The notes under the pieces: model-generated | The model's input: only the letters and a program-made list of their open reading frames with translations | The model's database searches: none | What the model was told of the DNA's origin: nothing | Program-made: the position numbers and the translations under genes | In this document: piece after piece, positions 1 to 12,141 of the stretch | Layout: each line of letters begins with the position of its first letter | Numbering within the stretch: position 1 is the first letter of the stretch | Assembly: GCA_051382305.1 (NCBI GenBank) | Contig: JBBCAV010000389.1 | Span: forward strand, 1 to 12,141 | DNA: 12,141 nucleotides | Reading direction: 5' to 3' | From: Bdellovibrionota bacterium FG-2 | GTDB taxonomy: Bacteria; Bdellovibrionota; UBA1018

Positions 1-1274
1 AAGGGCCTCTCTTCATCTACCAACTCTATTGCCAACTCATCAAGAGCATCCCTCGCGTTGGCAAGGGCATTGATCCAAACCTGTTCTAATTGGAAAGGAT
101 CTCCATTAACCGGGCGAAGTCCTTCGTGCAAATCGGTTACGATCTGAATACCGCGCAATTTGAGTTGCGCCCCCATAAGCATAAGCGCCGATTGCATCGT
201 TTCGTTGACGCTAAGGGGGCCGAACTCGAGATTACCTTGCCTAGAAAATTCGCGAACATGCTTTATCACTCGATTACAGCGCTCAATAGATGTCGTTATT
301 TCTTTAAGTGCAGTATCAAGCTCCACCTCGCTCAAAAGCTTTTTTTCGTTAAGTTTCCTGATGAGATCAACCGCCAGAGAAATTCCGGCCAATGGCTGAT
401 TCATCTCATGGGCCATCCCCGCGGACATTTCGCCTAAAGTGGACAATTTCGCGGTTTCAAAAAGCTGGGCTTGAGACTGGACAAGGTCCGACGCTTGCCC
501 TTTTATCACCTCTTGATGCAGCTTAACCTGAGTGACCATTATATTGAAAGTCTTCGCAAGGGCCGCCAATTCATCACTTCCCTTAACATTCAAGACGACA
601 TCCAGTCGTCCAACACCAATAGCTTCAGTCGCGATTTCCATTTCCTTTAGCCGTTTCACCAAATTTAAGAACAGAAAAGCCGCAATAAAGCCAGAAACAA
701 GGAGGCCTAAAAGAAACAGTCCCACAACCAGCCATTTAATATAAGCAAGTTTGGTCGCAAAAATCTGCGAATCACTTCGACTTCTTGCCTCTAAAAGAGA
801 AATCGCGCGAGTGATTTCGGGAATAAATTTACCTACAAAAAGTTCTCTTCGCGTCGTCAATAGAAGTTGTTTGGCATTTTCAAAATCACGCAACTCAAGA
901 AACCCTCCGACTTGATCCAAAACCTGATCCAAGTCGGCGTAGAGGCTGATCGAAGCTTGAGCAGGGCTCGCCTGCACCTCTCCATACAAGACTCGCAGCC
1001 TCTCAATCGATTTATTAATTTCATTTTCAGCAGCCTTGAGTTGCTCGAGAGACCTTGCGCGGTCAAATCCCAATAAAACCTCATAGGTAATCAAAAGGCG
1101 ATCTCGAACCTTTGCGCGAAAAGTTGTGAGATTAAGCAATTCAAGCTCAGTTCGGGATGCCGCGACCTTAAAAGCCAGAACTTCGGATGTTTGCCAATAA
1201 ACTATACTTATCGTCAAAAGAAACGGAATAATCGCGCCCAGCAATAGTGTGAGAAGTCTTGTTCGGAGTTTCAT
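1..1274 (-). CDS. Membrane-bound HAMP-domain sensor histidine kinase (NtrB/DctB-like HisKA), 3'-truncated by the window edge
   Basis: Not in the ORF track; translated by hand from ATG at 1274, and the frame stays open to the window edge (~424 codons). Features: TM1 (MKLRTRLLTLLLGAIIPFLLTISIVYW), a periplasmic helical region, TM2 (WLVVGLFLLGLLVSGFIAAFLFL), HAMP (KRLKEMEIATEAIGVGRLDVVLNVKGSDELAALAKTFNIM), H-box (KLSTLGEMSAGMAHEMNQPL) and N-box (QLEQVWINALANARDA). Confidence 0.93.
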   Translation of the reverse strand, partial: MKLRTRLLTLLLGAIIPFLLTISIVYWQTSEVLAFKVAASRTELELLNLTTFRAKVRDRLLITYEVLLGFDRARSLEQLKAAENEINKSIERLRVLYGEVQASPAQASISLYADLDQVLDQVGGFLELRDFENAKQLLLTTRRELFVGKFIPEITRAISLLEARSRSDSQIFATKLAYIKWLVVGLFLLGLLVSGFIAAFLFLNLVKRLKEMEIATEAIGVGRLDVVLNVKGSDELAALAKTFNIMVTQVKLHQEVIKGQASDLVQSQAQLFETAKLSTLGEMSAGMAHEMNQPLAGISLAVDLIRKLNEKKLLSEVELDTALKEITTSIERCNRVIKHVREFSRQGNLEFGPLSVNETMQSALMLMGAQLKLRGIQIVTDLHEGLRPVNGDPFQLEQVWINALANARDALDELAIELVDEERP

Positions 1275-1349: not shown

Positions 1350-1664
1350 CTATCGCCTCGATTTTGACGGTGAATGATCTGCTTTTGAAAAAATCCGGCG
1401 CGGTTCGTAGACAGTTTCAATTTCGATCAAGTTCTTTTTTATCCGATAAACAATCCGGTACCCCGCTTCGACTAACTCCCGCAAATCCTCTGAAGCATAC
1501 TCAGGAACAATGCGCCCTGAGGTGGGAAAATCGGCTAGAATCTTAGTACGTTCAATGAGCCGTTGAATGAATTGCTCCGCATTGGCAGGTGATCCTTGAT
1601 TGACAATATAGTCCTGAATCTCAAATAGTTTCTCGCGAGCCTCATCCGTCCAAACAATTTTCAT
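1350..1664 (-). CDS. Type II toxin, RelE/ParE superfamily
   Basis: 104 aa with typical ParE/RelE-family motifs: MKIVWTDEAREKLFEIQDYI...LADFPTSGRIVPE...LRELVEAGYRIVYRI...IEIETVY. Overlaps the upstream antitoxin by 4 nt (ATGA). Confidence 0.92.
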   Translation of the reverse strand: MKIVWTDEAREKLFEIQDYIVNQGSPANAEQFIQRLIERTKILADFPTSGRIVPEYASEDLRELVEAGYRIVYRIKKNLIEIETVYEPRRIFSKADHSPSKSRR

Positions 1665-1951
1665 TTTCGCGTTTTACGCCTTTTAGCAAGTTGGCGCTCC
1701 AACTCCTCAGTACTGACCACCCGGCCCGCATCACCATCCGCAACGCCTTTTGCGACAGACGCCATAAAACGCTCTGAATAAATTCGGTCGTACTCTTCGG
1801 GCGACACAATAACGCCTGCGGCTTTGCCGTTCTTAGTAATCACAATCGGATGCCCCGAACTCTGCACACGATCAAGATAAGCTCCCGCGTGGTCCTTAAA
1901 CTCAGCGACCGTTACAAGATCCGTTGAAAGTTGAATTGCTTTTAAGCCCAT
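1661..1951 (-). CDS. Type II antitoxin, Phd/YefM family
   Basis: 96 aa with the Phd/YefM signature VTVAEFKDHAGAYLDRVQSSGHPIVITKNGKAAGVIVSPEEYD. AGGAGG RBS at 1957-1962 (minus strand). Lies directly upstream of the toxin. Confidence 0.93.
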   Translation of the reverse strand: MGLKAIQLSTDLVTVAEFKDHAGAYLDRVQSSGHPIVITKNGKAAGVIVSPEEYDRIYSERFMASVAKGVADGDAGRVVSTEELERQLAKRRKTRK

Positions 1952-1975
1952 TAAAACCTCCTGAAGGGAACCATC

Positions 1976-2006
1976 AGTATAGCGTGTTTAAACGACCTTT
2001 AAAAGG
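1976..2006 (-). promoter_or_regulatory. Putative TA promoter (-10 TATACT) with two adjacent palindromes, a candidate antitoxin operator
   Basis: Minus-strand TATACT at 1981-1976. Palindromes GTTTAAAC (1986-1993) and CCTTT-A-AAAGG (1996-2006) have TTTAAA cores 11 bp apart and cover the spacer/-35 region. Confidence 0.4.
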
Positions 2007-2052
2007 CATAATTATATCCGATAACAGCCGCTGAATTACCTCAAAACATCCA

Positions 2053-3059
2053 TCACTTAGAAGAAACCAACCCATCAAGCACCGTATAGAGAGGGCTCTT
2101 ATCGATGTAGATATCATCAAACTTGTACCCGGATTCGGCAAGAGAAGCAGACAGCAACTCCCCATTGAAAAGCGCCCCACCACCCGTGATCACAAGCAAG
2201 CCCACCCACTTCGAGGCAGTGTTATAATACTCTGTAATAAAATCCGTCGCGATGCGTCGAAAATCTTTGTTGGTATCCCAACGTGCGTTTTCTAAAATCA
2301 AAGATACATCGATCTGCTGGGTTGCAATCTCAAGTGACTTACATCCCAACTCGATTTGCTTCATAAGCCAGTAGGGCTCTACGCCTTCGATGTTTTCTTC
2401 TTTAAGGGCGCGCAAGATCGCGTCGCTATAGAAACGCGCGCCAAACTCCGTGATTGAAAACTTCTCCACCCCTTGCTGTGCGCTAACGACATACATTTTG
2501 GTTGACGCAAAACCGATATCGACAAACAAGGCGGAATCAAATTCAGATTTGATTTTGCCGACATACCCAATGACCCCGTCACTGGCAGGCACCACACTAA
2601 CTTTCAGTTCAACTATTTTCCTGATTTTCTGCGGCCCGCGATATGCGACGAGCTCAAACTTTCCCGCCATCGCCCCATAAATCGTCTCAAATACCTGCCT
2701 TTTTGTTGGCACATCCACGACAATACTTAGCTCGATTTCATCCCCCGAATCCGAATATCAAAAAGTGATTTTCTCAGAACCAGGCACGCGATCAAGTTGT
2801 TCCGGCAAATTCCCTCAGCGCTCTCATCGCCACAGTTCCAGCGCTCGTTTGGGCAATCCCCGCCAACCAGATAGCGAATCCCGCCAAACTCATGGCAAAT
2901 CACGCGATCGGCGCTCTCAGGCGCTTGGGTAGCCGCAGTTGGAAAAAAACTTCTCCCAAACAGTTTGTAATCGCCGCCAGCGTCAGCCCCTTCATCTTGA
3001 TGAAGGACACAAACTTTCGTGTAAAACGATCCGGCGTCAATGAAGATCTTTTTCTTCAC
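2053..3059 (-). pseudogene. Actin-like ATPase (ParM/StbA-type) split by a single-base frameshift at ~2730-2757; ~335 aa if joined. Either a pseudogene or a sequencing error
   Basis: ORF 2727..3059 carries phosphate-1 (IFIDAGSFYTKV) and the ParM-like segments FFPTA and GIRYLVGG. ORF 2053..2718 carries phosphate-2 (LFVDIGFASTK) and the adenosine motif (LVITGGGALFNG). The downstream frame is open from 2757 (YSDSGDEIELSIVVDVPT), overlapping the upstream frame, which stops at 2727-2729. Adding one base gives 1008 nt, a normal actin-fold length. Confidence 0.78.
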
Positions 3060-3083
3060 GCAGATGTCTTTAGGCTAAAAAAG

Positions 3084-3605
3084 CTAAAATACGATTTTCT
3101 TCGCAGGTTTGCCCTTCTTGCGAAGCTCCTGATAGCTCTTGCCCTTCTTAGGTTCACCCGACTCTTCAATCGTGATCAATTTTGCGGCATCAGTAGGATT
3201 GAATTCGTTTAAGCTGCTCTCGGGACCTCTTGGAGGAGCGTTAGAGGTCCCCGCCCCCTGATTCATATTCAATTTCCGAATCGTATTTTTGATGTCTCTA
3301 ATTTCTTCAAAAAGAGACGAATTCTCCAGACCGCTCGCTTGATTCTCTTTTGATTCCAACATCGAATCAAGATTATCGATCTTGTCTTTCGTCGAGCGAT
3401 GCAAGTTTCCCGAAGAAACTCTCTCAACTAGGTCTTGAAGACTCAAAAGGGGGTCACTCCCCCTTTTGCGGCTGCTTTCAGCTAACTTCAAATATGTTTT
3501 GAGCACAACCTTCAAAACATATTTGGAGCCTTCAGGATGTTGTTTACCGAAACGATAAAACAGGTTTTCGAGTTCTGAATCAATAACGAGATAAGATGAG
3601 TCCAT
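3084..3605 (-). CDS. Hypothetical protein; possible N-terminal ribbon-helix-helix, central coiled coil and low-complexity basic tail (ParR-like adaptor architecture)
   Basis: 173 aa with an AGGAGG RBS at 3610-3615. The N-terminus SYLVI-DSELENLFYRFGKQ-HPEG-SKYVLKVVLKTYL fits a strand-helix-helix pattern, and the tail is KKGKPAKKIVF. Located between two actin-like genes. The CDS is solid; the fold is inferred. Confidence 0.6.
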   Translation of the reverse strand: MDSSYLVIDSELENLFYRFGKQHPEGSKYVLKVVLKTYLKLAESSRKRGSDPLLSLQDLVERVSSGNLHRSTKDKIDNLDSMLESKENQASGLENSSLFEEIRDIKNTIRKLNMNQGAGTSNAPPRGPESSLNEFNPTDAAKLITIEESGEPKKGKSYQELRKKGKPAKKIVF

Positions 3606-3626
3606 ATTGCCTCCTAAAATTCTTGC

Positions 3627-4826
3627 CTAAAGTTCCTGAACGATATTAGCCACTGAAAAACCCGGCTTAACATCTTCGCCTTTATCCATTGCGATTTGAT
3701 CGCGAGCCAAAAGCATAAAACCCACACAATTGATATGCCGAGAGTCAACCCCGGTTGCCTTTGCATCCAGAACCCGCTGATCCACAACTTCTTGTGGCCA
3801 ACCAAAATAATCCCCAATGTTCTTCTTTATTTTATCAAACAGCAGATGAGCCCCGCCTCCAATGATAATAAAATAATCAATCGCCTGACCCTTCTGGGAC
3901 AAACTGGCCACGTCTGCGGCAACCTTATCCCCGATCTCGCGAGCAAGGATCGTGGTCTGCTGCTCCAAGAGTTTCGAAAAATCAAAGACCCCGGCACCTG
4001 GAACTTCAATCTTATAGTCCTTGGAAGGCAGTCGCTCCATTAAGCGCTGCTCGGGGATCTTAAACTTCTGGCCGCTGGATTCGAAAATGACGTTAGCGAT
4101 GTTTCGGGTAATCGTGAAAATCCCTTCAGTAAAGGACTCAGACAACCCGATCTCCGCCTCATTCTCCACCACCGGGAGCTTAATCCACGTCCCATGTCCA
4201 ATATCGATGACATAGGTATTCTGAACCGTCATATTATATTTACTGAATAACAGCGCCATGTACGCGCCGTAGGCCTGATACTGCATGACACTGAAGTCCA
4301 ACTGAATCTCAATCTCGCGGACCTCATTAAGCGCCACGTTCTTAGCTTTGATCAAAAGAAACTTTTTGCCATCCCGCTCTACCAAATGTTCCTTAATATA
4401 GGCGAAAAACTTCTCGATGACATTCTCCCCGTGCCGAACCGTGATCCCAAAACCAAGGCCGATACGATCAAGCTTTTGGCCCTTTTTCTCCATTTCTAAA
4501 GACAAAAGAAAAAGCCCCGCCTTGATCGCCACAAATGCGTCATCATAGTTCGTGAGCAACCCCTTATGGGTGAACCAATCGGTCTTCTCAGACCGTCTCG
4601 TCATGGCGCCCACATACCTCCACGAGTTCCGATTATCGTCAAACACGGCCACATTGCGAATCCAGCGCGAATCCGCTGAGCGATTCATGTGCCGCCAGCT
4701 ATTTTCCATCGCTTCGGTCAGAGCATCCCCCACGACCGAGGAAAACAAAACGACCGTATCATCGCAGCAAAACTTGCTCGCGGATGTCCCTAACTCCCCA
4801 CCTACTGCAAATGTTTCATCAGCCAT
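3627..4826 (-). CDS. mad28: Actin-like ATPase; probable Mad28-type magnetosome-associated actin (family assignment tentative)
   Basis: 399 aa. Phosphate-1 variant AVGGELGTSASKF, connect-1 FSVMQYQAYGAY, phosphate-2 YVIDIGHGTW, adenosine FIIIGGGAHLL and C-terminal INCVGF. The actin fold is well supported. The mad28 name is inferred from size and from context with HEAT and coiled-coil genes. Start overlaps the upstream stop (TAATG at 4828-4824). Confidence 0.62.
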   Translation of the reverse strand: MADETFAVGGELGTSASKFCCDDTVVLFSSVVGDALTEAMENSWRHMNRSADSRWIRNVAVFDDNRNSWRYVGAMTRRSEKTDWFTHKGLLTNYDDAFVAIKAGLFLLSLEMEKKGQKLDRIGLGFGITVRHGENVIEKFFAYIKEHLVERDGKKFLLIKAKNVALNEVREIEIQLDFSVMQYQAYGAYMALLFSKYNMTVQNTYVIDIGHGTWIKLPVVENEAEIGLSESFTEGIFTITRNIANVIFESSGQKFKIPEQRLMERLPSKDYKIEVPGAGVFDFSKLLEQQTTILAREIGDKVAADVASLSQKGQAIDYFIIIGGGAHLLFDKIKKNIGDYFGWPQEVVDQRVLDAKATGVDSRHINCVGFMLLARDQIAMDKGEDVKPGFSVANIVQEL

Positions 4827-6847
4827 TATCTAGATCCTTTAACTTCGCTCAGCTCCGCTTCGAGAGCTGCACGTGATTGAACAATGAGTTCGTATTCACC
4901 CTTCATGGATTCATACTCCTTAACCACTAAATCGCGCTCGTGCTTTGTTTTGGCCGTTTCTTTTTCAATTTCGGCGAAAGTTCGTTTCACCGTCTTGATT
5001 TCGTCGTCTTTTTCCCTGTTTGCACGGGTCGCTTGCGCAATTTGCGCCGTGAGTTCCTTCTCTTTTTTTGCAGCTTCTTCTTTTGCCCGATCAAGGTCTC
5101 GAGTCACTGTCTTCTTGAGCTCTTCGATCTCCGCTAGCGCCGCCGCTTTCTTCACTTCCAATTCTTTTCGAATTTCTTCTTCTATCCTCGCTTTTGCCCC
5201 AGCAATATCAGCCTTGATCTTCTCGATCTCAGCTTCACCTCGCTTCTTTTCTTCAGCAAGCTGGCGCTCAACTTCAGCTTTTTCGGCTTCCATCTGTTTT
5301 CTCAACTGGACGAGATGAGCCTCAACCTTTTCTTTATCTTCTTTGAACTTCTGCTCCATGGCCAAAAGTTCGTCTTTATACTTTAACCGCTCGGCTTCGA
5401 TCACCTTCGAGGCGTCCTCTAACTTCTTGGCGATCTCGGCGTCAACCCGAACCTTCTCTTCAGTCATTTCGGCCCGCATGGTGTCGCGCTCTTTTGCAAC
5501 TGAATCTAAGAGCTCCGCTTTTTCATCCCTCGCTTGAGCTAACTCCTGGGTCAACCGCTCCACGTTTGCCTGGACACTCGCCTGCTCGTCTTGAAACTTC
5601 TTCGAATTATACTGGAGACTCTCCACCTGGGCAACCAGGTCCTTGATCCGATCAACAACGAAAGCCTTTTTCTCTTTTACCAAGCTTTTTTGAGAAACGG
5701 CCTCATCGCTCTTGTCAATATTCTCTCTGATCGCCTTGCCTAGTTCAGCGATGTTGAATGGCTTGGCATAATACTGCTGAATGGCCCCTTCATTCATGGC
5801 TTTAATCGCCGCGTCCATTTCACCAAATCCCGTCAAAAGAAAAATCGGCAGATCGGGCTGCAATTTGCGAATCTCATAGGACAACTCGATCCCAGTCTTC
5901 TTGGGCATCCGGCAATCCGTAACCACTAAAGCAACCTCGGGATGTTGCTTAAGCATTGCAAGCGCCGCATCGGCTTGTTCTGCAACGATAATGGTGTATT
6001 TGCTCTTAAAAACGTCGGAAAACATGCGCCGCATGTCTTCTTCGTCATCCACAAACAAGACACAATCTTTGCCGTCGATCTTTTTACGAGTGCTTTTCGC
6101 TGTTAAATCGGAACCCACTTGGATGGTAGCGCCCTTCGTTGAATCGATCTGAATCTCGATCTCTTTGAGGGCGTCTTGGGCCTTCGTTTTTTCCTTATTC
6201 AAAAGATTTTTCTGGGCTTCCAACTGCCCAGATTTATCCTTGAGACTTACCGTCTCTTTTTCCAAATCGCCTATCCTTGTCTTAAAATGCGCGATGTCTC
6301 TAACGACACCTTGAACCCGGGCCAGACTTTGCTCTTCAAGCTGCCGAGCCTTTTCAAGTTGGACCTGAGCTTGTCTCTGTAGTTTTTCCGCATCGCTCAC
6401 GCGATCAAAAATAGTGTGAACCTTTTCGTAGACCGCTTTTACGTCAGCTTTGTCTATTGAACTACCGGCGTCCTGCCCTGAACGCAGCACCGAGAGCTTC
6501 TCAATCACACTTTTGAGTTCATGATAATTCAAGGGTTTAACAAAGCAGGTATCCGCCTGCTTGGATTCAATGGCCGCAAAAATATGTTCGTCTGTTGGAA
6601 GTCCCGCGGTTGTTACGATCTTAATCGCGTCACTACTCGCTCGTTCAAGCACCTCTGTAAAGGGTGCGCCAACAAGCGCCTCCGTCACAATGACGACTTG
6701 AGGCCGAAACCTTTCGATCAGTGCGTGGGCCGACTTGCCGTCAGTGCAAACCTCGACTTCATGGTAATGCTCCAGCTCTCCTTTGATCTCAGTCAAAAAC
6801 AGGCTATCCGCATCCACGACAAGAATTCTTTTTCTGCTGTTACTCAA
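4826..6847 (-). CDS. Double receiver (REC) domain protein with long coiled coils and no DNA-binding output domain
   Basis: 673 aa, TTG start with a GGAGGG RBS upstream. REC1 is degenerate (ILVVDADS...PQVVIVTEAL...FVKP). A coiled coil follows, then a canonical REC2 (LFVDDEED...VALVVTDCRMPKKTG...FLLTGFG...YYAKPF) and ~290 aa of E/K/A-rich heptad coiled coil. Confidence 0.85.
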   Translation of the reverse strand: MSNSRKRILVVDADSLFLTEIKGELEHYHEVEVCTDGKSAHALIERFRPQVVIVTEALVGAPFTEVLERASSDAIKIVTTAGLPTDEHIFAAIESKQADTCFVKPLNYHELKSVIEKLSVLRSGQDAGSSIDKADVKAVYEKVHTIFDRVSDAEKLQRQAQVQLEKARQLEEQSLARVQGVVRDIAHFKTRIGDLEKETVSLKDKSGQLEAQKNLLNKEKTKAQDALKEIEIQIDSTKGATIQVGSDLTAKSTRKKIDGKDCVLFVDDEEDMRRMFSDVFKSKYTIIVAEQADAALAMLKQHPEVALVVTDCRMPKKTGIELSYEIRKLQPDLPIFLLTGFGEMDAAIKAMNEGAIQQYYAKPFNIAELGKAIRENIDKSDEAVSQKSLVKEKKAFVVDRIKDLVAQVESLQYNSKKFQDEQASVQANVERLTQELAQARDEKAELLDSVAKERDTMRAEMTEEKVRVDAEIAKKLEDASKVIEAERLKYKDELLAMEQKFKEDKEKVEAHLVQLRKQMEAEKAEVERQLAEEKKRGEAEIEKIKADIAGAKARIEEEIRKELEVKKAAALAEIEELKKTVTRDLDRAKEEAAKKEKELTAQIAQATRANREKDDEIKTVKRTFAEIEKETAKTKHERDLVVKEYESMKGEYELIVQSRAALEAELSEVKGSR

Positions 6848-6873
6848 AGAACCCCCCTCCCCACATTAGAAAT

Positions 6874-8730
6874 CTAAATCCGTTTAAATTCCGTCAACAC
6901 ACTCTCAGACGTAACCGAATCCTTGCCCGCAAAAGACACGGACGCACAAACACTATCAAGCAGCTTGATTGCTTTACCTGGAAAATACTGATTAGGCAGC
7001 GTGCCTGAAACCTCCACACATTTGGCAACCGCATCGCTGGAAATCCTCACCCGATGGTGCGCCTCGTAAACATTCTTGATCCCCATCAGAATATGAACCG
7101 TTTGGGTTGCATTGGGCTCCGAAATATCCACAACCTGAAACCGCCTGACCAACGCCCGATCTGGCTCGATATGCCGTTTATATTCGTCATAGGTTGTTGC
7201 ACCAATGCAAGGAAACTCCCCGCGCGCCAGATAGGGCTTCAAAATGTTTTCAGCGCCCGCCGAACCTTCCGTGCTTCCCATCCCAAGCAGGGTATGAATC
7301 TCATCAATAAAAACAATAATGCTGTCAGCGTTAGACATCACTTCTTCAAGCAATCCCTCGAGCCGCTTCTCAAACTCTCCTCGATATTTTGTCCCCGACA
7401 GCAGCGAATTCAAATTAAGAGCAAACAAGCGCTTGTTTCTAAACGCTTCGGGCACTTCGTTCTTCACGATTTTGGTGGCCAAACCTTCAACAATTGCCGT
7501 CTTACCTACTCCGGCCTTACCTACCAAAAGAGGGTTGTTCCCTTCAAGTCGTGACAAAATTTTCAGACACTCCTGAATCTCGCTATCGCGCCCCACGACG
7601 GGCTTAATCTTGTTTTCCAGAACTAATTTTGTAAGATCACGGCCATAGCGCTCAAGCAGAACCGTCCCTTTTAACCCTGAATCGCCTTTAATTGAGCCGA
7701 AAATAGGCGCTATCTCTGGGGGCAAATCTAAACTGGGAGCCAAAATCACAAGAAAACTCCCCGCGTGCTCAAGCGGCTCCGGCAGGGATTTGATCATCGA
7801 GATCATTTCGGCAAACTCCTGGCCCGAGAGATTCTCGCGGGTCAGGTAATAATGAAAATCTTCTAGCAAATAGAGGGTATTTTTTCGAAAGCCGCTTTGG
7901 CATCCGCTTCGAATCGCACCGAGCATATCCAAAGGAGAGAGTCGTTTTTGCGCGAGCATTCGGTCGTCATAAACGTACGCCGATCCTTTGGGAGACCCCA
8001 GACCTTCTGAATAGTTCCATTGCACGGGGGTAAGCCCCAAGGTGTCTGACACCTTTATGAATTCGCCAATCAGTTTCTTTGAATCGGTGTAAGAGGCGAT
8101 CATGAGATTCTTGGCGTTTTCGGCCGTGAAGGGTGCAAGCATCGGACTGGCAGAATTTATGGAGACCCTAGGCTCCGATTCAATTTCGGCTTTTTTTGCC
8201 TGGTGCGCTTCACTTTTTACCGTCGGAGCCAATGGGACAGCTTCAGGTCGGATCTCAGAACCATCCGCGTCTCTCGCCTCAAAACTCTCCCCAAAACTAG
8301 AAAGATCAAACCAGCCAAACTGGAAATCCTTAAGCCTATGTTGCTGCTCTTTCGAATTTAGAGCCAAGAAGGTTTTCTTAAAATAGACAAACACGTCAAA
8401 CTCATAAGCTTCGGGCAGCCGCCATTTCGCTAAATCATCAGACGCGCGGCCGTTATCCGCAACCCGGTTAAAAAGCGCGATTCGATATTTCTTTTCTAGA
8501 AAAATATCAGTGGGGTCAATGGGATTGTAAAAGGCGAGTTTGACCTCTTCAGCGATATCATTCTGAAGCAACCACTCCAGATCACGCCCCAAGGTTTCAG
8601 GCATTCCTTCACCCTCGTCGCCCTCAATGATGTCGTAGGCGCGATTCAAGGCCACAATGTCGGTCTTGAGTTGCCTCGAGAGCGCATCTTTTCTGGCTTG
8701 AACTGTTTTAAGGATTATTGGACACCCCAT
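6874..8730 (-). CDS. AAA+ ATPase with a single ClpA/ClpB-type NBD1, preceded by a Ycf46-like degenerate AAA domain and an unknown N-terminal domain
   Basis: 618 aa. Clp NBD1 motifs: LERYGRDLT...PVVGRDSEI, NNPLLVGKAGVGKT (Walker A), GTKYRGEFE (pore loop), IIVFIDEIH (Walker B), CIGATTYDEY, DRALVRRFQ (Arg finger) and FPGKAIKLLD. There is no NBD2 or Clp repeat N-domain. Residues ~208-345 (WNYSEGL, SPLDML, LYLLEDFHYYL, LVILAPSLDLPPEI) match the Ycf46 N-terminal pattern as I recall it. Confidence 0.85.
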   Translation of the reverse strand: MGCPIILKTVQARKDALSRQLKTDIVALNRAYDIIEGDEGEGMPETLGRDLEWLLQNDIAEEVKLAFYNPIDPTDIFLEKKYRIALFNRVADNGRASDDLAKWRLPEAYEFDVFVYFKKTFLALNSKEQQHRLKDFQFGWFDLSSFGESFEARDADGSEIRPEAVPLAPTVKSEAHQAKKAEIESEPRVSINSASPMLAPFTAENAKNLMIASYTDSKKLIGEFIKVSDTLGLTPVQWNYSEGLGSPKGSAYVYDDRMLAQKRLSPLDMLGAIRSGCQSGFRKNTLYLLEDFHYYLTRENLSGQEFAEMISMIKSLPEPLEHAGSFLVILAPSLDLPPEIAPIFGSIKGDSGLKGTVLLERYGRDLTKLVLENKIKPVVGRDSEIQECLKILSRLEGNNPLLVGKAGVGKTAIVEGLATKIVKNEVPEAFRNKRLFALNLNSLLSGTKYRGEFEKRLEGLLEEVMSNADSIIVFIDEIHTLLGMGSTEGSAGAENILKPYLARGEFPCIGATTYDEYKRHIEPDRALVRRFQVVDISEPNATQTVHILMGIKNVYEAHHRVRISSDAVAKCVEVSGTLPNQYFPGKAIKLLDSVCASVSFAGKDSVTSESVLTEFKRI

Positions 8731-8736
8731 TCTTTT

Positions 8737-9504
8737 TTAATCTCGCTCGTCTGAAAAACTCTTCACCCGCAGCTTTGTATCTTCAAGATACTCGCGCACG
8801 TCACTCAAGGCATCGTGATAGTCAAAAAGCCGCTTTTCAATCACCTTGTTCTTATCTGTACCCGAATGGCGCATCTCTTCTGATTTTTTGAAACGCTCGA
8901 CCATCTTCGTTTTCTTCTTCATGACCTTTGGAAGGTCGTTTTCAAGTTTCTCAAGGCCAGATCGAATTGTTGCACTCTTATGCTTGATGTCTTTTGCCAC
9001 CCCAAAAAGCTCGGCGTTTTGTTCCCAAAGCGCTTCTGCCCTCGATTGCAAAGAGCCTAAGTTCCCACTGAGTTCCCTGTACGACTCCTCAAGCTCCGGC
9101 AATTTGGTCTTGAAACTCTCAGTCTCGTTCAATTTCAGCCGTACCTGCTTATTGAGATAGAGGCTCTCGCCTTTCAAACGCTCGCGCTCGGAGCGTAAAA
9201 AACTCACGTTACGCTCTAGCTCAAGGGCATGATGTTTGAGATGCGCCAGCCGCTCGGCATCATCAAGAAACCGAATCGCTCCTAGGTTCAAGAGATCCGC
9301 AAAAATCAAATGAGCTTCACTGGAACTGAGCGTAAAAAACTGTTGAATTTCTTCTGCTGTTTTCAAGCCATCAATACAGCTCAAAAAATCAACCTTCACG
9401 GCATCCCCCGAGACGGCCTCCGGAGCAATCACGGTCGGATATTTTTCCTTGATCTGATCCCAGCTATCTAAAAGCTTCTTCTTTAGCTCTGAGGAATTAT
9501 CCAT
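8737..9504 (-). CDS. Hypothetical protein: N-terminal winged-helix-like domain plus long coiled coil (Mad26 position in a mad-like cluster)
   Basis: The likely start is ATG 9504 (MDNSS), with an AAGGA RBS 7 nt upstream and an overlap with the previous stop, giving 255 aa rather than 262. N-terminal FLSCIDGLKTAEEIQQFFTLSSSEAHLIFADLLNLGAIRF is wHTH-like; the remainder is heptad-rich. Confidence 0.65.
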   Translation of the reverse strand: MDNSSELKKKLLDSWDQIKEKYPTVIAPEAVSGDAVKVDFLSCIDGLKTAEEIQQFFTLSSSEAHLIFADLLNLGAIRFLDDAERLAHLKHHALELERNVSFLRSERERLKGESLYLNKQVRLKLNETESFKTKLPELEESYRELSGNLGSLQSRAEALWEQNAELFGVAKDIKHKSATIRSGLEKLENDLPKVMKKKTKMVERFKKSEEMRHSGTDKNKVIEKRLFDYHDALSDVREYLEDTKLRVKSFSDERD

Positions 9505-10039
9505 GGACCGATTCCTTCTGCTCAAACTTATCCATCAGAACGACAACCTCTTTATAGGCATCATCTCGCTCTTCTTCAGCTTTTTTCAAAGCCTTTGAGA
9601 ACTCCTCGTTTTGAGCAGCAAGTGCCCTGGTCTTTTCTTTTTCCTGATCTAACTGCGCCTTGTGTTCGTCAACCCTTTCAAGGGCCATCTCAAGCCGTCG
9701 GTCAACTTCCCCTAACATCGGATTTTGTTTTTCAAGCTCCTTGAGCTTGTATTGCAAATCCTGATTTTCACGCTTAAGGTTGAAAATCTCAGAATCCCGA
9801 GTCTTTGCCTCGATTCTCATCGCGACATTCACTTCCATCGTATCTTTAAGCTGCGCTTCAAGCACGCGAATGGCAGACAACATATCCTCGATATTGCCAT
9901 GCAGAACTTCGTTTGAAACTTTTGCGAGATCCTCGACCTTGATTTGAGCGAGGTCCCTCAAGCCGTCTTTAATTTTGGAAATACTAAACCGCGAAGGTTC
10001 TGCGGATGTGTCGCCTTTTTTTATTTCATCAGCCTTCAT
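9497..10039 (-). CDS. Coiled-coil protein, possibly Mad25-like
   Basis: 180 aa, almost entirely heptad E/K/L-rich after an N-terminal segment (LRDLAQIKVEDLAKVSNEVL). ATGA overlap with the upstream gene. The Mad25 call is from position and size only. Confidence 0.65.
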   Translation of the reverse strand: MKADEIKKGDTSAEPSRFSISKIKDGLRDLAQIKVEDLAKVSNEVLHGNIEDMLSAIRVLEAQLKDTMEVNVAMRIEAKTRDSEIFNLKRENQDLQYKLKELEKQNPMLGEVDRRLEMALERVDEHKAQLDQEKEKTRALAAQNEEFSKALKKAEEERDDAYKEVVVLMDKFEQKESVHG

Positions 10040-11037
10040 TTTGCAGCCCCGCCTTCCAATTGCGAATAGAATTGAATTTTGCCCTTTTTAATAACCGTCC
10101 GTAACTCCTCAGTCAGCGTCTCCAAAGACTTCTCAGACTCTGCTGTCTTATCTAGGAGCACCTTCTTATCCTTGCGAGTTCTGCCCAATAAGGTGTCCAA
10201 CTGGCCCAACAAATCCTCGTAAACTCCCGCTTCATCTTTGGCGAGCGCGTATCCTCGTTGAAGATCTTTGTAGCGCTTGGCCATACTCACCAAACTCTCA
10301 TAATCCCCATCGAGGTTCTGCAGTACACCCGCTCGCTCGCTGCTTAGAAACTGAATCTCCAACAAAAGTCGATTGCATTCAATTTGGGCCGTGGCTACTT
10401 TGTTCTGTAATACGCGAAACAATTCTTTTGCTTCGTCATATACTTGAACCACTTCAACGTATTGTCCTTGAAGGACCCGATTCTGCTCAAACAACGCCTG
10501 ATTCTCGAGTTTGATCTTCTCACTTTCGTGGGCCAAGAAATTAGCCCGATCCTGAAGCTCTTGCAGCCTAGCCGAGATGGGATTAGCGCCCGAAACCTGC
10601 TCGTCTTCTACCATTGCATGTTCGCTTGCGCTCGCCGCGTGCAACGCCTGAGATTTAGTTTCCACCACAGGTTCAATCGCCAATGGCTTTGGCCTGTCCA
10701 TGCTCTCTGCGAGATGAGAGAGGTGGCTTACGATCCGAGCAATCTCCAGCCGTAGCTGCTCTTTTTTATCAGAAACCCCTCCCGCACTCCTCAGGGTCGA
10801 TTGGACGTTGCGAATTCGAGCCTGAAGGCGAACATCCTTCTCTGCTTCTGCAAGGGGCAAAAGTTGAAGAACCACGCGTTCATAGTCCTCACGAACTTCA
10901 CTCAAGGATGCATTTGAATCGGCTTTCGCCACAACTTTTGCGAGCGCCTCAATACAAAGTTCGATGACTTCAGTCTTCTTTTTAAGCCTAAATGGGAGCT
11001 TGCTTGTGAGAGCGTGCATCCCTTTCATCTTCATCAT
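10036..11037 (-). CDS. Coiled-coil protein, possibly Mad24-like
   Basis: 333 aa: helical N-terminal region, Pro/Ala linker, and ~180 aa C-terminal coiled coil. ATGA overlap with the HEAT gene stop. The Mad24 call is from position only. Confidence 0.65.
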   Translation of the reverse strand: MMKMKGMHALTSKLPFRLKKKTEVIELCIEALAKVVAKADSNASLSEVREDYERVVLQLLPLAEAEKDVRLQARIRNVQSTLRSAGGVSDKKEQLRLEIARIVSHLSHLAESMDRPKPLAIEPVVETKSQALHAASASEHAMVEDEQVSGANPISARLQELQDRANFLAHESEKIKLENQALFEQNRVLQGQYVEVVQVYDEAKELFRVLQNKVATAQIECNRLLLEIQFLSSERAGVLQNLDGDYESLVSMAKRYKDLQRGYALAKDEAGVYEDLLGQLDTLLGRTRKDKKVLLDKTAESEKSLETLTEELRTVIKKGKIQFYSQLEGGAAK

Positions 11038-12141
11038 TCTGCACCCCCTGTGCCCGCACCCCCAGGCTCCACTGTCTTAATACGTTTGCGTGGAGCCGGC
11101 TTTGATGCAGCTTCTCGATGCTGCTGCTCAGAGGCAGCTAATTCCGGTGAAGGGGCCGCAAGGGCGCCCTCATGCATCTTGGAAATCCACCACGTCTTAA
11201 GCTCTTCGACATCCCCTTTAAAAGGAACGGAGCCCCCGGTGATTCTCTCAAGCGCAGAGATAATCGTTTTGCGCAATTCTTCATCACTTTCAGTTAAAAG
11301 CCTGATCAGCGGCAATACAGAAGCTTCATCACGCAGATTGGAAAGCGAAAGAATCGCGCTTTTCTTTACGCGCCTGTCCTGATCGGCAGCGGCTTGCAAC
11401 AAAGCAGGAACTGCAGTTGGAGCATCACACCAGCCCAAGAACATTGCACTTGAATTGCGAACTTCAACATTTTCGTCTTTCAATCCTTCGATCAAATAAG
11501 GAACTGAATCATTGCGCCCCGCCTTATACAAACCGCGAATACAGGCCGCGCGGATCGCTGCATAGTCGTGCTTCACAAAATCCTTGCTGATTGCAAACGT
11601 GTCCTTATCTTCTAAGCGCACTAATGAATTGATGAGTTCGGCTTGAAGCTGGGGATCACCGTACTGCAACGCTTCTTTGAGGGCTGCGCCCGCATATTTA
11701 TTTCCCAGTTTCCCTAATTCACTGGCGGCAAGCCTCTTGATTTCGGTCTCGTCATCTAAAAGATCATAGAGCGCTTTACGAAAAATAATGGCGTCGGACT
11801 GCAAATGGAATTTCGCTTTTCTTAGGGCATCCTCAATCGCATGCTTGATTCGCTTATGAGTCTTATCGCCGGCTGCACCCATTCCCGTGGTGTCTTCGAA
11901 TGACACTGACTCGCCCGAAACATTCTTTTTCTCAGCGTCGTTTAACTTTGCTTCGTACTTTTTCAGCGCGTTGAGCTGATTTTCATAGGCCTGAATCTTC
12001 TCGACGATTTCGCGAATTTCGGGGACTTCAAAGAGCTGGTCTTTATTGTCCACGCCCGAGCCAATTTTCCCGACTTGGAGATAGCCTTCGCGAATCTGGT
12101 TTTCGAGGGTTGCAATCCGGGCTTTGATTTCTGTATAGTTA
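11034..12141 (-). CDS. mad23: Coiled-coil + HEAT (PBS-lyase HEAT-like) repeat protein, probable Mad23-type; 5'-truncated by the window edge
   Basis: The frame stays open 29 codons upstream of the GTG at 12053 (NYTEIKARIATLENQIREGYLQVGKIGSG-VDNK), so the true start lies outside the window. About six HEAT units: LLDDETEIKRLAASELGKL, ALQYGDPQLQAELINSL, VKHDYAAIRAACIRGL, GLKDENVEVRNSSAMFLGW, AAADQDRRVKKSAILSL, LLTESDEELRKTIISALERI. The HEAT call is strong; the mad23 name is inferred from architecture and context. Confidence 0.62.
   Translation of the reverse strand, partial: NYTEIKARIATLENQIREGYLQVGKIGSGVDNKDQLFEVPEIREIVEKIQAYENQLNALKKYEAKLNDAEKKNVSGESVSFEDTTGMGAAGDKTHKRIKHAIEDALRKAKFHLQSDAIIFRKALYDLLDDETEIKRLAASELGKLGNKYAGAALKEALQYGDPQLQAELINSLVRLEDKDTFAISKDFVKHDYAAIRAACIRGLYKAGRNDSVPYLIEGLKDENVEVRNSSAMFLGWCDAPTAVPALLQAAADQDRRVKKSAILSLSNLRDEASVLPLIRLLTESDEELRKTIISALERITGGSVPFKGDVEELKTWWISKMHEGALAAPSPELAASEQQHREAASKPAPRKRIKTVEPGGAGTGGAE

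Follow-up and report, generated by a model that had tools for sequence, protein, structure and literature searches.

MamK is treated as the universal marker of magnetotactic bacteria and as the filament that builds their magnetosome chains. Among the proteins of the mad set, Mad23 is a HEAT/coiled-coil protein, and in RS-1 Mad23, Mad25 and Mad26 form an interaction network (PMC12748827); Mad27 is described, in the accessible text of two papers, as an ATPase-domain protein encoded by 1527 bp (∼508 residues) in FSS-1 (PMC7951924, PMC9840458). The actin-like Mad28 of RS-1 has a mass of 42.6 kDa and a 48-residue N-terminal region with amphipathic helices preceding its actin part (PMC12713370, accessible text), and mad28 is called conserved in magnetotactic Desulfobacterota alongside MamK in the accessible portions of PMC9840458 and PMC12713370. 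For magnetotactic Bdellovibrionota, the available part of a 2026 report (PMC13200544) describes clusters with a mamAB operon, with mad17, 23, 25, 27, 28, 29 and 30 and with nearby two-component genes, all without mamK, and states that another gene must do the job of mamK, Mad28 being the only candidate named there. The DNA considered here, referred to as the window, is the 12,141-nucleotide contig JBBCAV010000389.1 of Bdellovibrionota bacterium FG-2, analyzed in its entirety as contig C389 of genome G000 (4.3 Mb, 433 contigs, 85% complete). It carries a nine-gene operon encoding, among other products, two actin-fold ATPases designated ACT399 and ACT2, and in its identity and general role this operon is probably the cytoskeletal one within the magnetosome gene cluster of a magnetotactic bacterium of the Bdellovibrionota.

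All sizeable genes of the window lie on the minus strand, and the nine operon genes are tightly packed from position 12141 down to 2053. An earlier note on this DNA had described co-oriented, overlapping or closely spaced genes for a HEAT protein, three coiled-coil proteins, an AAA+ ATPase, a receiver (REC)/coiled-coil protein and two actins; these kinds are confirmed, and a small conserved protein of 173 residues, U173, is added as the ninth, between the actins. Every junction named in that note reads as stated, including the ATGA overlaps at 11034–11037 and 10036–10039, the TAATG junction at 4826, and an 8-nucleotide overlap at 9497–9504 with the letters ATGGATAA. The remaining intergenic gaps are 6, 26, 21 and 24 nucleotides. 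The 8-nucleotide overlap, together with the starts of orthologs, places the start of the third coiled-coil gene at 9504, giving a product of 255 residues. The full set of nine genes is retained in related loci of Bdellovibrionota, Syntrophales and Acidobacteriota (L008–L013 and L023). Promoter-like matches in the window (16, compared with 11.4, standard deviation 3.3, in shuffled sequences) and terminator-like matches (19, compared with 14.3, standard deviation 3.5) are not above the shuffled level.

Membership of the operon in the magnetosome gene cluster of a lineage that has received little study is supported both within its own genome and among relatives. The earlier note had proposed looking beyond position 12141 for mam genes, and mamAB-type genes are found on contig C68 of the same genome, in a run whose best NCBIfam matches are MamA, MamQ, MamB, MamP/MamE, MamO and MamM, each scoring under the respective equivalog cut-off, which is alphaproteobacterial; the magnetochrome domain PF18509 is also on C68. 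Because these genes sit on a different contig, linkage to the operon in G000 itself has to be deduced. In a relative whose actin is 93% identical (G002), the operon and the mamAB operon share a single 160-kb contig, on which small mad-like genes and a Fur-family gene come first, then the genes for a Volactin-type actin, a small protein and a ParA/MinD-like ATPase, then feoA/feoB in the opposite orientation, the window-type operon, a Fic gene with a two-component block, and the mamAB operon. The operon thus lies between a block of mad28-mad29 type with feoAB and the mamAB operon, in the middle of the cluster; of the earlier reading as the tail of a magnetosome gene cluster from a poorly studied lineage, the cluster stands, given the mam genes on C68 and the linkage in G002, and the tail does not. 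In six genomes (G003, G005, G006, G016, G029 and G035) a magnetochrome match falls on the contig numbered as the record of the ACT399 locus. In L009 a divergent feoB precedes the HEAT gene, which is the first of the operon there, and, judged from the gene order in G002, contig C7 of G000 probably adjoins the 12141 end of the window. The nearest named homolog of ACT399 (85% identity) belongs to one of the genomes that the accessible text of PMC13200544 names.

ACT399 was sought in species-representative genomes with two exact peptide patterns, a scan in which an unmatched genome is not evidence of absence, and magnetochrome matches are present in 25 of the 37 genomes with ACT399 and in none of 14 control genomes. 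Among 401 Bdellovibrionota genomes ACT399 is found in six, G000 included, and all six have magnetochrome matches; of the 395 without ACT399 only three do, all at no more than 23.3 bits. In the family to which the window belongs, ACT399 is found in three of 57 other genomes, identical to the three with magnetochrome. Six of 401 Desulfobacterota genomes have magnetochrome above the cut-off, and the single one with ACT399 is magnetochrome-positive. In a quick tree of ACT399, in which high-GC sequences L036, L037, L038 and L041 are probably in the wrong frame and from which L033, L034, L040 and L043 were omitted as too short, the 19 magnetochrome-positive, cluster-linked rows form one supported clade beside nine rows of the Wallbacteria group. 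Of the 19 genomes in the cluster-linked clade, 17 have the Volactin-type actin as well as ACT399; the Volactin-type actin was not found in the nine Wallbacteria-group genomes or in six magnetochrome-positive Myxococcota. The MamK model NF040964, for which 400 bits is taken as MamK level, exceeds 88 bits (MreB level, as in controls) in none of the 26 magnetochrome-positive genomes with ACT399, whereas MamK is present at 406–482 bits in three of five magnetochrome-positive genomes without ACT399. The best NF040964 match anywhere in G000 has 79 bits, on another contig and at MreB level, and the families listed at E-values up to 0.01 for ACT399 and for the two ACT2 pieces do not include NF040964.

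Both actins of the operon are, by their predicted structures, ParM-type folds. ACT399 matches PF21522 with 31.8 bits (cut-off 27.8) and is predicted with a mean local confidence (pLDDT) of 83.2 and a template modeling confidence (pTM) of 0.80. Its best fold matches in the PDB, by Foldseek, are pCBH ParM (6ixw, E-value 4.6e-16) and Ta0583 (2fsj), and other ParM-family matches to the actins are R1 ParM, B. thuringiensis ParM and Alp7A; MamK (5ljv) ranks 35th for ACT399 and 29th for ACT2. At the level of sequence, ACT399 has a weak ParM match in NCBIfam and Atlas neighbors from ALP/ParM families, and a sequence search of the PDB gives nothing significant. Identity among the 37 loci is 50–99%, reaching 66–69% between Bdellovibrionota, Syntrophales and Acidobacteriota, and the phosphate-1, phosphate-2 and GGGA/adenosine motifs are invariant. 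Plasmid ParMs are usually far less conserved than this across phyla. A search of 1.84 billion protein representatives with ACT399 finds only 19 proteins, and the ACT399 family constitutes a single 50% cluster. The closest full-length outsiders are annotated as ParM/StbA family proteins of the Asgard archaea Heimdallarchaeota and Helarchaeota (P0139, P0144; 23–30% identity), not bacterial ParMs. A 684-residue paralog, 38% identical over the actin part, lies ∼13 kb downstream of ACT399 in another Bdellovibrionota genome (G791:C37:44906-46012; P0130/P0149).

ACT2 is a single open reading frame of 330–406 residues in all 14 relatives aligned, and is present in the window as two reading frames, 2727–3059 (110 residues) and 2053–2718 (221 residues), split by a 1-nucleotide deletion near 2757/2758 relative to the DNA of L008. 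The L008 copy is predicted with pLDDT 92.1 and pTM 0.87, and its best PDB match is R1 ParM (1mwm, E-value 3.3e-14). ACT2 has no match to a sequence family; its nucleotide-binding motifs are invariant, and it evolves fast, with identities of 29–65%. Among the sequencing runs listed, one contains the locus, with contigs covering 2053–2733 and 2772–3605 and none spanning the frameshift site, and no RNA run among those listed carries the locus.

In U173 a conserved helical N-terminal part leads through a variable linker to a FNPxDAAKL motif; the C-terminal tail is basic, with F as its last residue. Of the 19 loci with an actin of 59% identity or more, 18 have the U173 gene directly behind that of ACT399, and the remaining locus ends just beyond the actin gene. 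Comparison with Pfam and the PDB yields no ParR, ribbon-helix-helix (RHH) or any other family. Prediction of an ACT399–U173 complex, using custom-made alignments, gives a median score of 0.45 (runs at 0.51, 0.45 and 0.44) with the best control at 0.00; at least 50% of contacts are shared between runs, pLDDT of the partner is 46–55, and the output contains no interface. Among solved complexes 58 of 80 reach this mark, as do two of 110 mismatched pairs; at values of 0.60 or less it is reached by only seven of the 80 solved complexes, together with both mismatches. On the other side of ACT399, the gene for the receiver/coiled-coil protein (RECCC) lies immediately upstream in 10 loci. The best Response_reg stretch of RECCC comprises residues 263–374. 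In the ortholog alignment the second REC retains the acidic pocket and the DxxMP motif, and this domain is absent in L012 and L021. In the first REC, at about residue 56 of the protein, the window and L008 have Thr, and most orthologs have the acceptor Asp.

For the upstream half of the operon, the classical mad module is represented by a stand-in, G045, a magnetochrome-positive genome without ACT399 from the 401 sampled Desulfobacterota. Its contig encodes, in order, a receiver-like protein, two coiled-coil proteins, a 565-residue HEAT protein, two further coiled-coil proteins, a 128-residue protein, a STAS protein, a Volactin-type actin, a membrane protein and a 518-residue AAA+ ATPase. The HEAT protein of the window (HEAT_2, E-value 1.6e-24; 497 residues at full length in L009) is 32.5% identical over 329 residues to the G045 HEAT protein (BLAST E-value 5e-56), and the AAA+ protein is 38.5% identical over 400 residues to the G045 AAA+ ATPase (E-value 5e-85). 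With these homologies and the published descriptions, the HEAT gene is read as Mad23-type, as compared with the stand-in, and the AAA+ gene as Mad27-type, the G045 gene being equated with mad27 by size and the term ATPase domain. The earlier note had taken the AAA+ gene as an inserted chaperone, a view that does not hold because a homologous AAA+ gene belongs to the classical-type module of G045, and the accessible descriptions give Mad27 as an ATPase-domain protein of similar size. Walker A, Walker B and a KYRGEFE pore-loop motif are legible in the AAA+ sequence. Models of ClpB, ClpV and ClpA match through the first nucleotide-binding domain (NBD1) only, at residues 352–605. A ClpB/Hsp104 disaggregase was considered and rejected, the match covering model positions 156–398 of 853 and the protein ending after the first lid. 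Residues 28–140 match the stand-alone 128-residue gene of G045 (L059, 5104–5490; E-value 6e-10); with its N-terminal part a separate gene there, a fusion or a fission of genes in the Mad27-type family is indicated. The three coiled-coil proteins, CC333, CC180 and CC255, occupy the place of Mad24–26, and none has a Pfam family above the cut-off. CC333 keeps its position in L008–L013 and L023 with 24–90% identity, and CC255 is the best conserved of the three (39–78% identity in 10 orthologs, 43 invariant columns).

A third actin-fold gene of G000, on contig C7, encodes a protein of 383 residues and 41.8 kDa that matches Pfam Volactin (PF25216) with an E-value of 4e-72. It is followed by a 104-residue gene and a MinD-like ATPase (321 residues), 2.4 kb in total, with feoA/feoB adjoining; a region of 2.6 kb with mad28, mad29 and a hypothetical gene is given in the accessible part of PMC9376291. 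On C7 (L062) the run at 1415–5321 is made up of a 151-residue gene, the Volactin-type actin, the 104-residue gene and the MinD-like ATPase, then DtxR-FeoA and FeoB on the opposite strand. The 104-residue gene has no Pfam match, and a PilZ-like label for the small gene, read from its sequence, was therefore dropped. The Volactin match starts at residue 58 in the G002 copy, which is 90% identical to the C7 protein, and at residue 65 in G045. The core begins at residue 6 in ACT399 (44.9 kDa) and at residue 2 in ACT2 (36.8 kDa), so that neither has an N-terminal region of the Mad28 kind, and ACT399, which precedes U173 and ACT2, does not have the mad28-hypothetical-mad29 neighborhood. None of the five magnetochrome-positive Desulfobacterota genomes without ACT399 has a match to ACT399 or ACT2 at E-values up to 1, and three of the five have the Volactin type. 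ACT399, ACT2, Volactin-type and MamK-type actins show no mutual BLAST similarity. Protein searches with ACT399 and with ACT2 (eight matches) return nothing named Mad and nothing from RS-1 or BW-1, as do the best 120 of 2893 matches to the C7 gene, and no Mad model of NCBIfam is matched by the window proteins; Atlas neighbors carry family labels only, and no paper treating both volactin and Mad28 was found. The Volactin-type gene on C7 fits the published descriptions of Mad28 in neighborhood, N-terminal region and mass, and ACT399 and ACT2 do not; these features agree with the Desulfobacterota result and the lack of BLAST similarity in indicating that ACT399 and ACT2 are probably not Mad28. The comparison in the earlier note with a mad23-26/mad28 module accordingly survives for the HEAT protein, which is homologous to that of the classical module, and is not supported for the 399-residue actin as Mad28.

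A mechanism in keeping with this gene content can be proposed. HEAT and coiled-coil proteins would form a scaffold on magnetosomes, by analogy with the Mad23/25/26 network of RS-1 (PMC12748827), and ACT399, probably also ACT2, would polymerize with ATP into filaments. U173 would bind ACT399 as ParR binds ParM and so link the filament to the HEAT/coiled-coil scaffold; neighboring two-component kinases may phosphorylate the receiver/coiled-coil protein and thereby tune assembly, and the single-ring AAA+ ATPase may remodel the coiled-coil assemblies. The set, joined by the Mad28-type actin from its separate locus, would perform the chain building done elsewhere by MamK. Substitution of a ParMR-like filament-plus-adaptor system for MamK is put forward tentatively. 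It is likewise conceivable, as a working idea held with some doubt, that MamK-less magnetotactic Bdellovibrionota, and some Syntrophales, Acidobacteriota, Elusimicrobiota and Myxococcota, build the chain with a co-opted ParMR-like machine in which U173-captured ACT399 filaments are tied to the HEAT/coiled-coil scaffold, ACT2 serves as a second filament or a cap, and phosphorylation acts through the receiver/coiled-coil protein.

One alternative is that ACT399 is itself Mad28, the gene so called in the Bdellovibrionota literature, and the operon merely mad23-mad28 with extra genes. ACT399 follows HEAT, coiled-coil and AAA+ genes as mad28 follows mad23–27 in the FSS-1 list (PMC7951924, accessible text), several divergent copies of mad28 can occur according to the available part of PMC10653835, and the mad28 that PMC13200544, in its accessible text, reports in all Bdellovibrionota clusters may be ACT399 there. 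This identity is nevertheless improbable: ACT399 is unmatched in all five magnetochrome-positive Desulfobacterota genomes counted as lacking it, a phylum in which the accessible text of PMC9840458 calls mad28 conserved; it lacks the 48-residue N-terminal region and the following small gene and MinD-like mad29, a pair that the C7 gene has; it is without BLAST similarity to Volactin-type or MamK-type actins; and its family, a single 50% cluster among the 1.84 billion representatives, has no second magnetotactic cluster beside it.

ACT399, U173 and ACT2 might instead be a general ParMR-like module for DNA segregation or cell shape that travels with the island and has no magnetosome role. The best structural matches are indeed plasmid-partition ParMs, each actin is followed by a small gene as parM is by parR, the family occurs in other gene contexts in the 12 genomes without magnetochrome, and a Phd/ParE toxin-antitoxin pair adjoins on this contig. 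Yet the actin genes overlap or lie no more than 26 nucleotides from the Mad23- and Mad27-type operon genes in an order kept across at least three phyla; all six Bdellovibrionota holders are magnetochrome-positive, and the three of 57 genomes of the same family that have the actin are the same three with magnetochrome; U173 has no ParR, RHH or other DNA-binding family, and none of the 37 related loci contains the toxin-antitoxin pair. Such a module is an outside chance. Another alternative, that the module is decaying in G000, with ACT2 a true pseudogene and the operon no longer fully functional, draws on the deletion that divides ACT2 into 110 and 221 residues where 14 of 14 relatives have a single reading frame; it is judged unlikely, since both halves retain conserved residues, the other genes of the operon are intact and their starts coupled, and a single-base error is plausible in an assembly as fragmented as this one (433 contigs, 85% complete).

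Several further observations weigh against a cytoskeletal magnetosome operon with a ParM-type substitute for MamK, beyond the possible use of the name mad28 for ACT399 in PMC13200544. Binding of U173 to ACT399 receives weak support from the complex prediction. By TM-score the actins resemble MamK (0.61/0.73) no less than ParM, so that the designation ParM-type leans on rank and sequence-level matches and not on TM-score. The MamK contrast has a Fisher p of ∼0.002 at face value, which overstates the case because the genomes are kin and mostly incomplete. Twelve of the 37 ACT399 genomes have no magnetochrome, nine of the Wallbacteria/UBP16 group and three Planctomycetota, and the gene has other neighbors there, so that the ACT399 family is not specific to magnetotactic bacteria. 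The coiled-coil proteins of the window show no BLAST similarity to those of G045, and a profile of CC255 aligned by hhalign with two of the latter gives no match (probabilities of 3.8% and 21%). All Mad names used here were set by the stand-in G045, gene order and published text, not by named Mad sequences. Finally, ACT2 is frameshifted in this contig.

The coordinates of the operon genes and of their neighbors are collected in Table 1. Neither gene of the toxin-antitoxin pair that separates ACT2 from the kinase is matched by tblastn in the 37 related loci, so that the pair seems to have been inserted in G000 specifically. A kinase and response-regulator block follows ACT2 in L008–L011, which fits the 'atypical' two-component run reported near Bdellovibrionota clusters in the accessible text of PMC13200544.

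Table 1. Genes of the window and their positions in the 12,141-nucleotide contig.
Feature	Position	Strand	Basis or remark
HEAT-repeat protein with N-terminal coiled coil, read as Mad23-type, 368 residues seen	11034..12141	-	HEAT_2; 5' end cut by contig end
CC333, coiled-coil protein, 333 residues	10036..11037	-	No Pfam family; weak SMC-like matches only
CC180, coiled-coil protein, 180 residues	9497..10039	-	Coiled-coil families, sub-threshold only; syntenic in relatives
CC255, coiled-coil protein, 255 residues, conserved N-terminal globular part	8737..9504	-	Ortholog alignment
AAA+ ATPase, read as Mad27-type, 618 residues: specific N-terminal region, single ClpB-NBD1-like module and lid	6874..8730	-	AAA, AAA_lid_9
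RECCC, REC / coiled-coil / REC / long coiled-coil, 673 residues	4826..6847	-	Response_reg, E-value 2e-27, two stretches
ACT399, predicted ParM-type actin-fold ATPase, 399 residues	3627..4826	-	PF21522, predicted structure, Foldseek
U173, small conserved putative partner protein, 173 residues	3084..3605	-	Position after ACT399, alignment; no Pfam or PDB family
ACT2, second predicted ParM-type actin-fold ATPase, two open reading frames here	2053..3059	-	Predicted structure of L008 copy, alignment of relatives
Phd/YefM antitoxin (96 residues) and ParE/RelE-type toxin (104 residues), overlapping genes	1350..1951	-	
HAMP-HisKA membrane histidine kinase	3..1274	-	Cut by contig end

Relatives of ACT399 were also observed in two other settings. 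In the Wallbacteria/UBP16 group (L024–L032) a relative with 54–57% identity lies between a conserved 426-residue protein, the start of which looks signal-peptide-like as read from its sequence, and a poorly conserved 238-residue gene; this context may represent a non-magnetosome use of the same actin. Magnetochrome-positive Myxococcota (L035, L036, L038, L040–L042) carry relatives with 50–51% identity, and in one genome (G035) a few kb at most separate the ACT399 gene from magnetochrome genes. Neither a MamK-level nor a Volactin-type match was found in these Myxococcota genomes, for which reason ACT399 may be the only cluster actin there.

The cluster type and the HEAT and AAA+ kinds of protein are already known, and for the downstream half of the operon (RECCC, ACT399, U173 and ACT2) no description was found. 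The literature search likewise returned no description of ParM-type actins in magnetosome clusters, a search that covered the accessible text of PMC13200544, with its figures and supplements (Fig. 5, Fig. S6, Data S3) outside it. To the question of what does the work of mamK in Bdellovibrionota the operon adds two candidates and a putative adaptor that co-occur with MamK-less clusters in several phyla, and the question thereby becomes testable. The mad scaffold genes for HEAT and AAA+ proteins are common to MamK-type and ParM-type clusters, and the operon can serve as a marker for finding MamK-less magnetotactic genomes. If the proposal is true, it would represent a second, independent recruitment of an actin family to position a bacterial organelle.

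Compared with known systems, the operon has counterparts in four. Like the MamK magnetoskeleton (MamK with MamJ, MamY and McaA/B), it places an actin-fold protein in a magnetosome cluster, with a proposed job in aligning or positioning magnetosomes; ACT399 and ACT2 differ in having no NF040964 match, and MamK and ACT399 were never found together in one genome here. Mad28-Mad29 likewise provides an actin-fold protein of the magnetosome cluster, encoded in G000 on C7 and in G002 directly upstream of the operon, but this Volactin type belongs to another family (PF25216), with an N-terminal extension and other neighbors. With mad23-mad27 of RS-1, FSS-1 and BW-1 (PMC12748827) the operon shares a HEAT/coiled-coil protein, several coiled-coil proteins and an ATPase-domain protein beside mam genes; it differs in that its coiled-coil proteins are not detectably homologous to those of G045, the N-terminus of its AAA+ protein is a separate 128-residue gene there, mamK was not found, and the operon also encodes two ParM-type actins and a coiled-coil protein with two receiver domains. 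From type II ParMRC and its chromosomal relatives (R1, pCBH, pSK41, Alp7A/Alp7R, CorM/CorR of Anabaena, and Ta0583) it differs in that the genes lie within an organelle gene cluster and not on a plasmid, two unrelated-looking actins stand in series, no DNA-binding fold was detected in U173, and no centromere was found, although no search aimed at centromere repeats was made. Common to both are an actin whose fold most resembles ParM-family structures, a short gene behind the actin gene whose product keeps its C-terminal tail, and a weakly predicted contact between the actin and this product.

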